Shown piece by piece: positions 21,556 through 24,500 of a stretch of 64,000 bases of DNA. The position numbers and the translations under genes are program-made. A model generated the notes under the pieces. That model made no database searches. It worked only from the letters and a program-made list of their open reading frames with translations, and was not told the origin of the DNA. The stretch is from a virus. Taxonomy: Duplodnaviria; Heunggongvirae; Uroviricota; Caudoviricetes. The stretch lies in IMG/VR virus record IMGVR_UViG_3300006204_000001, one strand, 5' to 3'. Position 1 is the stretch's first letter; each line of letters opens with the position of its first letter.

Positions 21556-24500
21556 TTCTACGTTCCTCCTCTAATAAAGACTCATCGAACTGTCTATATT
21601 TTAATCGTGGGTCTTCTTCAATAATTATTTCCATTGGATTATTCATCTCGCCATACATGGATATACTATTGTCTTTATAATGATATAATTTATCAAGCAT
21701 CGAATTATAATCATCATTATTGTCGCATCCAATTCTAAGTTCTTCTCTATCTGGATCATCATATTCCTCTAATTGATTTAAAGGAACCTCATCCAAATAT
21801 TCATTAATCTTAAAGTGCATTTTATTCTCATATAATGAATCATCAAAATACAATGAATCCATTTTACAATATGGAGATAAACTACCACTTTGTCCCAAAT
21901 ATATTTATATACTATTATAATAGTATATCGAGTATAAAACTCTGCTCATATTCTCATATGACGTTTAGACTATATCTTTCATCTTATAATCTTTTACCAA
22001 TTATAATCTACTCTACCACTTCATCTATTATATAGATTACTCTACTTACCATAATACCGTTTATTATTCGTATATTATAGAATCTTCGATAGTCGTTGAA
22101 CTTGTTATAAACTTTTCTTATTTTTATCCTAATTAAAAAGTCTTTTTTTAGCTGCGTGGTTGACTCTATTCTATACCTTTTTACTATACCTATTAGAATA
22201 ATTCTATTATAAAAAGTCTAATAGCCATTATTATATTACTATAATAATTTAGTAGTATAGACTTAACAAGTTATTCCCGCAATTAAATAATTGCATGCCC
22301 CTTACGATATCAATGAAAGGGTCTGAACTTGAACTCTCAGCAACATCACAAAATCCTAGCATACTGGGATGTAATGCTCTTTGTCTTATAGATATTCTTC
22401 GGTTATCATTATTTCCGAGTGAATTCAAATATCTTAACTCTATATCTCTATAGATGTTGAGACTATATCTTTATTTCATATGAAAAGATACTCCATTTCC
22501 ATAATAAATTATGTACTCTACTAACTATTATTGCTAATATCAATTTAACAATTGATATAGGTATTTCTCCTATATCATAGCTTTTCGATAGTCGTTGAAC
22601 TTTTAATAATTATTAATAAATTAATTGGTTTTGGTTACGGAGGATTTACCACCTTTCTTTTTTTATTATTTTTATTTTTTATTAATAATTAATTTTATTA
22701 GCTGCGGATTATCTCTTTATTTAACCTTTTTACTATACTCTAGTTAATTACTCTAGACCACTACTATATTTCTATAAATAGTTTAGTAGTTAAATATACA
22801 GACAAGATATTCCCGCAATTAAAAGTATGCCACCCAATTCATATTAGGCGTAATATTTATATAACATCTCTTAATATTATACATGGTATAATTATTTTTA
22901 CATAATTTCCCATCCCTATATTTCTATAGGATACTAGACTATATCTTTCCTATATTACCTTTTACCGATAATACAAGATCTTTTCATTTCTATAATCTAA
23001 TTATATACTATACTTACTATTGATATAGTATTTCACTTATACCATAGCATTTTCTATAGTCGTTGAAGTTTCTTTTATAAAATAATTTATATTAGAATTA
23101 TTTATAAAATCTTACCTGCTTATGATTGTCCAATCTTTAATGTTTTTACCATCTGATAGTCGTTATACTATCTGCTTACATATTATATTACTATAATATA
23201 GCGGTAATTAAAGCTCTAAGGAATTTCCAGCAATTAATAAAGAGAAGGCTCAAATTATATATTAATTTATTTAATATTACATAAAATATTATTTTAATAG
23301 ATAATTTATGTTCACCTTTCTTAGTATATTTGACCATATTAACCATATCCATATCATTATTTGTTTCAGCATATCTTAAAACACCTGAAGAATATAATTT
23401 TGTAATGAAAATATCTTCCAATTATCTTATCTTCATTTCTCAATGAACGTTGAGACTATATCTTTATAGAATTTATTATATTAATCTATATCTTTCATTT
23501 CCACTATTATGTGTACTCTACTAGCTTATATTAGTTTTCGATAGTCGTTGAAGTTTTAATTGAATTATTATAATTCAATTTATTTACCTGCGATGATTAT
23601 CTCTATTCTATACCTTTTTACTATACCTTGAGATATTACCTCTTGCCACTATTATATTTCTATAAATAGTTTAGTAGTATAGACCTAACAAGAACTCCCC
23701 GCAATTATAAAAGAAACCCCAAAGATTCTAGGGAATTTAAACATGCTAATGAAATCTTTAATACCTGCTTTAGGTCCTAATGATACAATACGATTAATTT
23801 TTTTAGATATTTCTGCTGTAACAAATGATGCAATATACTCCCTACATCTTAATCTTTTATTTATCATGGATAGATTATCTTTTTGCCATAAATCGAAATA
23901 ATTTTCTACGATCCATCGTAATAAATAATAGATATTCTGTTTATCGTAATCATTAATTTTTAATTCTTTACGCGTTACTTCATCTAATAATCTATTGAAG
24001 AATATATGTTGATATTGACCTCTACTAATTGTATTCTTTCCACCAACTATAATCATCCATTCTTCCCAATCATCAATTTTTTCAAATGGAATTTTTGTTT
24101 CTTCAAATAATTTTATTAGACATCCTACTATTGATTTTATATATATCTCTTTTTCAAATATTTCCTTATTTACTGCTACTATTATATCAGATTTCTTTCC
24201 ACAATCAAATCTAATAATATGATCTGATTTTGGATATGTTTTATCTTTTGATTCTATTCTTATAAATTTATTAACTTCTAAGAAATTCAATGTCTTAGTA
24301 ATAGTTAAATGAGAATAAATAAGTAATATATTAATAGCATTTTTGAATATTTGAATTGTATATGTTGGTATAGTATGTACATTACCATCCATATCGGTAT
24401 AATCATCATTAGTAGTCTTTACACATATAGGCATTAATGATTTTACTGTTACAGCACTGAATGATGGATATAACATTTTATCTACCATCTGATAGATGAG

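Follow-up and report, generated by a model that had tools for sequence, protein, structure and literature searches.

In the RNA polymerase gene of an AR9-like jumbo phage, two predicted group I introns flank an exon of only three nucleotides, and the guide of the downstream one (intron 3) fits the unspliced precursor better than the spliced mRNA. Its P1 helix has five exon-side pairs while the upstream intron (intron 2) is still attached and three after intron 2 has been removed. With moderate confidence, and on the strength of folding models, we propose that splicing may be biased toward removal of intron 3 first, an order that would be neither obligatory nor general. Splicing of microexons and of tandem introns is already known; the reversed (downstream-first) polarity is the new part.

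The window, i.e., the whole stretch of DNA analyzed (64,000 nt), derives from this phage. On the minus strand, the ORF 24893-23685 has matches in AR9 (gp105), PBS1, LPJP1 and Staphylococcus jumbo phages, in each case to the non-virion RNA polymerase beta N-terminal subunit, and the gene is uninterrupted in AR9 (g105) and LPJP1. Four sets of P-Q-R-S motifs, in order with P7, lie downstream of this ORF on the same strand. Excision of 23729-23419, 23313-22849, 22845-22426 and 22317-21896 generated a single open frame of 578 aa with one stop, and gp105 homology spans the spliced junctions (tblastn E-value 2e-26, PHROG 2943, motifs aligned over all four). A search against Rfam at the gathering score gave no match in the window; in E-value mode, RF00028 (group I) matched with E-values of 3e-6 to 0.15, under the gathering score. 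On the basis of core motifs, splice-site U.G pairs and terminal G, the four interruptions were assigned to group I introns, which are predicted to be self-splicing. The features are as follows.

23730-24893, minus strand: exon 1, non-virion RNA polymerase beta N-terminal subunit (AR9 gp105 homolog); homology and frame
23419-23729, minus strand: predicted group I intron 1, 311 nt, without an ORF in the window; motifs and frame
23314-23418, minus strand: exon 2, 105 nt, last codon Gly GGU; frame
22849-23313, minus strand: predicted group I intron 2, 465 nt, with guide G 23249, a 5-bp P1, a weak P10 and terminal G 22849
22932-22934, minus strand: 5' strand of intron 2 P9.0, partner 22850-22852; covariation in 15 of 18 introns
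22846-22848, minus strand: exon 3, 3 nt, CCU, a single Pro codon; frame, Pro in 79 of 79 uninterrupted proteins, same exon in the relative L039
22831-22850, minus strand: predicted precursor P1 hairpin of intron 3, 8 bp, taking in the last two bases of intron 2; folding
22836-22841, minus strand: P10 strand of the intron 3 guide, six pairs to exon 4 bases 22425-22420
22426-22845, minus strand: predicted group I intron 3, 420 nt, guide G 22835; motifs and frame
22318-22425, minus strand: exon 4, 108 nt; frame
21896-22317, minus strand: predicted group I intron 4, 422 nt; motifs and frame
21539-21895, minus strand: exon 5, 357 nt, with the stop codon; frame

Introns 1, 3 and 4 are mutual near relatives (~70% in the core), and intron 3 is closest to intron 1, its companion in this gene. 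Sites 1, 3 and 4 each lie directly after a CCU codon and have guides starting with GGG, which fits movement between Pro codons. At the site of intron 1, a 237-aa HNH gene is present in sister strains L047-L055 (e.g., L047:4843-5556), with none at 23419-23729 in the window, and sequencing runs X3 and X4 carry a 718-nt insertion at the position of this ORF. Two further group I S motifs occur in the window, at 1142 and 2193 (plus strand).

The splice sites of exon 3 are fixed by the frame, by the Pro of the uninterrupted relatives, by the 6-bp P10 of intron 3 and by P9.0 covariation. A 6-nt exon or a different boundary was ruled out by the frame and because intron 3 has to end in G, and assignment of CCU to intron 2 was ruled out because Pro is required. 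In 15 of 18 introns, pairing is seen between the base two positions 3' of the S motif and the one that precedes the terminal G, with four types of pairs, and this covariation confirms the 3' splice site of intron 2. P9.0 of intron 2 has 3 bp (22934-22932 with 22850-22852), and the single intron L056 has the same G-C; the penultimate C of intron 2 is therefore explained by its own P9.0, and intron 3 is not needed to account for it. Intron 3, with terminal G 22426, has a 2-bp P9.0, and the different P9.0 pairs of the two introns should help each of them find its own terminal G. The P10 of intron 3 is formed by guide bases 22841-22836, three of which also close P1 with the first bases of the intron; as the same guide bases serve both P1 extension and P10, the start of the intron resembles the start of exon 4. 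CCU would be contested in any double, being the P10 substrate of intron 2 and the P1 substrate of intron 3. The P10 of intron 2 is weak, with a mismatch at the first position, and becomes one pair longer when intron 3 has been removed. Whether intron 3 is present or removed, the six bases 3' of intron 2 do not change, as noted in the preliminary description; the sequence identity is true, but as evidence for coupling it reflects the ordinary P1/P10 duality, and in L039 it extends to eight bases although the polarity there is opposite.

The intron 3 hairpin runs from 22850 to 22831 around a 4-nt loop and is composed of three intron-side pairs, the splice-site U.G (22846:22835; 23314:23249 in intron 2), two C-G pairs, G.U 22849:22832 and C-G 22850:22831. 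An 8-bp hairpin that includes the terminal C-G of intron 2 had been proposed earlier and is present, with 22829-22830 lying outside of it. The loss of two pairs upon removal of intron 2, also proposed, was seen as well: with exon 2 joined, the outer two pairs of P1 are gone (U.U and G.G), and the folding energy of the hairpin is -4.0 kcal/mol, versus -8.8 kcal/mol in the precursor. The energy of the cleaved duplex is -6.3 kcal/mol in the precursor versus -2.8 kcal/mol in the spliced context, where the splice-site U.G still forms with a probability of 0.987. Pair probabilities in the hairpin were 0.98-0.998 in local folding, with tertiary binding of the terminal G and docking of P1 outside the model. 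In this folding, which excludes tertiary binding, P1 of intron 3 takes the terminal G of intron 2 (0.996) and C 22850 (0.98), versus 0.001 for P9.0, so that the suggested occupation of the terminal G was observed and includes the first P9.0 pair. The 32-nt junction is identical in 10 sister-strain loci, and L047 is ~97% identical across introns 2-4; these strains are too close for selection to be visible at the junction.

A 3-nt exon had been regarded as too short for a normal P1, which does not hold in general: the Azoarcus tRNA-Ile intron functions with a 3-bp P1 and, like intron 3 in the spliced context, has three exon-side pairs (PMC4201826). However, the Azoarcus intron has P2 and very strong tertiary stabilization (PMC4201826), whereas introns of the window family are mostly without P2 and all others have at least four pairs. 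The 27 other introns with a normal 5' exon in the same gene have 4-8 exon-side pairs and duplex energies of -3.6 to -11.2 kcal/mol (the survey takes the best register for each intron, the 27 introns are not independent, and the site-3 introns are not one clade). In 22 of them, the P motif lies 13-14 nt from the guide, which backs the register. None of the 27 has three pairs to its real exon, and intron 3 of the window is the sole outlier and the weakest in the family, even if its spliced-context duplex is just 0.8 kcal/mol weaker than that of the weakest single intron. The precursor context brings P1 back into the normal range of the family. Because the other introns have 4-8 pairs with the real exon, the intron 3 guide is matched to the precursor and not to the mRNA, and the earlier proposal that it is better suited to the precursor is thus supported.

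Relatives with 60-80% protein identity show every state of the two sites: empty, site 2 alone, site 3 alone and both. Introns at site 2 only (after the Gly codon) occur in ten lineages, plus one shifted by one base, and introns at site 3 only in L013, L043, L044 and L045; among the 120 matches listed of 499 in the homolog search, both introns are present in the window phage and in L039. Further relatives searched for a third double had single introns or neither site occupied (one judged from called genes). Genome contigs yielded no relatives, a pattern scan yielded no additional site-3 introns, and a scan with the C-terminal part yielded no new contigs. Among the six introns at site 3 (after the Pro codon), that of the window alone fails to pair at position -4 with the real exon; in the other five of five, the -4 guide base matches the third base of the Gly codon (U-A, G-C, A-U and C-G). 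Comparison with relatives carrying intron 3 alone had been recommended in the preliminary description, and the guides of all four pair with this Gly third base of the exon. The site-3 introns of relatives could not be treated as orthologs, as a single clade was rejected (p-AU 0.0065) in a poorly resolved tree of mosaic introns; intron identity does not follow insertion site across phages.

The second natural double, L039:6683-8683, has the same CCU exon (8236-8238), and its P1 polarity is reversed relative to the window. Its intron 3 forms eight pairs with the spliced exons (-13.0 kcal/mol) versus three with the tail of intron 2 (-4.7 kcal/mol; five pairs with a bulge). Removal of the upstream intron would thus restore the helix in L039, from three to eight pairs, as in an upstream-first ratchet, whereas in the window it shortens the helix from five to three pairs. 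Precursor fit is therefore not general, since the other natural double fits the opposite way. The two L039 introns share a 47-nt 3' stretch with 94% identity, and the upstream one contains a long ORF.

Taken together, the data are consistent with two independent group I introns flanking a one-codon exon, in which a short local hairpin, complete 15 nt after the exon, would form on transcription and hide the 3' splice site of intron 2. Being complete so early, the hairpin would form before intron 2 can ligate. Intron 3 would then usually finish splicing first, from the precursor, whereas the first step of intron 2 would not be blocked. Joining of exons 3 and 4 would free CCU, the terminal G and P9.0 and add one P10 pair, after which intron 2 would ligate. 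This would be a biased order and no lock, as the reverse route is predicted to stay open via the 3-pair P1. If the precursor supplies the pairs, there would be no selection for a match to the mRNA context. Spliced exon joints were sought in contigs of four sequencing runs, and none were found. A 315-nt contig from a mouse metatranscriptome corresponds exactly to the interior of intron 3 (22494-22808), with the rest of the gene absent; it may represent a stable excised intron or DNA.

It is conceivable that intron 2 goes first, its core capturing the terminal G and P9.0 by tertiary contacts and thereby opening two P1 pairs, so that intron 3 would have to use three pairs. Intron 2 is transcribed earlier, the polarity of L039 is of this kind, and upstream-first intermediates occur in Ophiostoma cob-490 (PMC12308204). 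However, this route goes through the weakest P1 of the family, the competing hairpin is complete 15 nt after the exon, and the P10 of intron 2 is mismatched at its first position; we consider it very improbable.

The two extra pairs of intron 3 are not by themselves beyond chance, as equally good folding was obtained for 35% of random contexts with G-CCU at the end; the mismatch to the spliced exon is the unusual part. With the four Gly codons, the energy of the intron 3 helix is -6.2 (GGA), -6.6 (GGC), -6.1 (GGG) and -4.0 (GGU) kcal/mol, i.e., a weak helix results from GGU only. The fourth guide base of the single intron L045 is likewise U and pairs there with a GGA exon, so that the mismatch is explained by a relic of another allele. 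Moreover, a guide base that fails to pair U(-4) of the exon is C or U and pairs automatically with a terminal G, in which every intron ends. These observations, together with the 5-6-bp pairing of the window guide with seven of 10 foreign tails, agree with a model in which splicing has no meaningful order: the extra pairs would be a by-product, the guide base would be a GGA/GGG relic, or else an earlier GGC in the exon would have become GGU by drift, and either route would work. The bias is seen in one lineage only, L039 is opposite, the U.G still forms and Azoarcus works with three pairs; by analogy, both intermediates occur around the 1-nt exon of Trichoplax (PMC5436844). It should be noted, however, that such a relic mismatch was kept in none of the 27 single-intron cases, and that a gap of 4.8 kcal/mol plus displacement of P9.0 should bias the order whatever its origin. 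We regard the absence of order as possible but not probable.

In its strong form, the proposal of the preliminary description is an obligatory interlock in which intron 3 adapted to the tail of intron 2, would have to be removed first and would thereby keep the Pro exon from being skipped. At guide positions 4 and 5, the exon is mismatched and the tail of intron 2 is matched, and none of the other site-3 introns has a G at position 5. However, the match uses a G.U wobble though G-C was available, guide bases 5-6 may also extend P3 within intron 3, as they may (weakly) in L043, and L039 retains the microexon without the feature. Nor is the match specific to the neighbor: with the foreign site-2 tails, the window guide often pairs better than with its own neighbor, and the never-neighbored guides of L043 and L045 each pair 5-7 bp with six of these tails. 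As the guide is equally at home with most foreign tails and C(-5) is fixed by P9.0, specific adaptation was not upheld, and we find the interlock unlikely. The fit is better explained by history than by fine adaptation, the guide having come from another Gly-codon allele or having been acquired by reverse splicing into unspliced precursor.

Prevention of skipping also does not require the extra pairs. In a model system, skipping occurred when the upstream intron was spliced first and the guide of the downstream intron took the new junction as its 5' site (Ueda et al., PMC10136302). This route is closed in the window with or without those pairs because the end of exon 2 puts G opposite G and so offers no pairing to the intron 3 guide. 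The term twintron-like, previously applied to the pair, does not fit either: CCU is a true exon and there is no intron within an intron, and by definition a true exon separates two introns whose sites are each occupied singly in relatives.

Known systems resemble the window in part. In ratchet splicing of fungal mitochondria, known from cob-490 of Ophiostoma ips and from rnl-576/577 of O. adjuncti, the latter with an exon of 1 nt, self-splicing introns lie 1-6 nt apart, and the exon-binding helix of the downstream intron reaches beyond the tiny exon, implying an order, as in the window (PMC12308204). Upstream-first ratchet models were proposed for exons of 1 nt in Ophiostoma and Ceratocystis rnl and of 3 nt in fungi (PMC12308204). 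There, however, the downstream intron reads the spliced exon and needs upstream-first removal, whereas in the window it reads the tail of the upstream intron; also, rnl-576/577, unlike the window introns, are group II introns (PMC12308204). In cox1 of Trichoplax and other placozoans, a 1-nt exon lies between two group IB introns and an essential codon depends on the microexon, as in the window; this system is mitochondrial, its exon has 1 nt and both single-intron intermediates were observed (PMC5436844). Tandem group I introns with a short exon likewise occur in orf142 of phage Twort (23-nt exon) and in 23S rRNA of Coxiella (34-nt exon), but these exons, as summarized in PMC10136302, permit independent P1 and P10 and show skipping, whereas the window exon has 3 nt and the P1 of one intron overlaps the 3' splice site of the other. 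Group I introns, often with HNH genes, are described in essential jumbo-phage genes, such as the PhiPA3 RNA polymerase intron (PMC11620839) and Jug phages (PMC12880540); the available parts of these two accounts contained no 3-nt exon or overlapping splice-site helices. A literature search, mostly without subscription papers, gave no report of a 3-nt phage exon or of downstream-first polarity.

Returning to the proposed downstream-first bias, its origin might be a reverse form of the ratchet, which we offer tentatively as a rather unlikely scenario. The guide would treat the tail of the neighboring intron as its 5' exon, fixed by reverse splicing into unspliced precursor; L039 would be the mirror image, and guide polarity would both record arrival and set the order of removal. 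One may speculate that the window polarity arose by entry into an unspliced precursor, and the L039 polarity when intron 2 came in upstream of an intron 3 already in place. If the donor carries a single intron, homing can use only 3 nt of homology on one flank and should eliminate the intron already there, so that doubles might come via reverse splicing, which is likewise speculative.

How two ribozymes share a 3-nt exon needed by the helices of both has so far been discussed mostly on the basis of sequence models and a few intermediates. The present family, with ORF-less introns of 420-465 nt, is a natural test set comprising empty sites, either intron alone and two doubles of opposite predicted order. 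The mirror-image pair is of main interest as it makes splicing order directly testable. If order follows the guide, this would provide a simple route for self-splicing introns to become mutually dependent and a compact switch for ordered splicing, and would bear on how an intron enters 3 nt from an occupied site, where homing should erase the resident; if not, this is one more crowded polymerase gene.

Several additional observations concern the relatives. L046 was rejected as intron-bearing: at L046:3758-3790, an in-frame TAG directly follows Pro-Asn-Ser codons in an otherwise uninterrupted gene, which may be an error, a pseudogene or recoding. L052 and L054 were left out as variants since they look like misassemblies across intron repeats; where intron sequence is shared, these contigs pass from the introns into different polymerase genes, probably by misassembly and possibly by recombination. 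Most site-2 introns have C-G at the 5' splice site instead of U.G, the exon ending in GGC (L006:6237, L012:6824, L014:6624, L022:4301, L033:7232, L039:6682, L056:4769 and L058:4055). In L011:5289-6367, the intron lies one base further on, within the Pro codon, following the same six bases as in L012 in a different frame; this is possibly a fifth insertion site, at most 4 nt from the other two. The site-2 intron of L009:6369-6604 seems to end in A instead of G, an end that agrees with the frame, with a P10 of 4 bp and with a Watson-Crick P9.0 of 2 bp. One 23S intron of Coxiella is known to have a terminal A.
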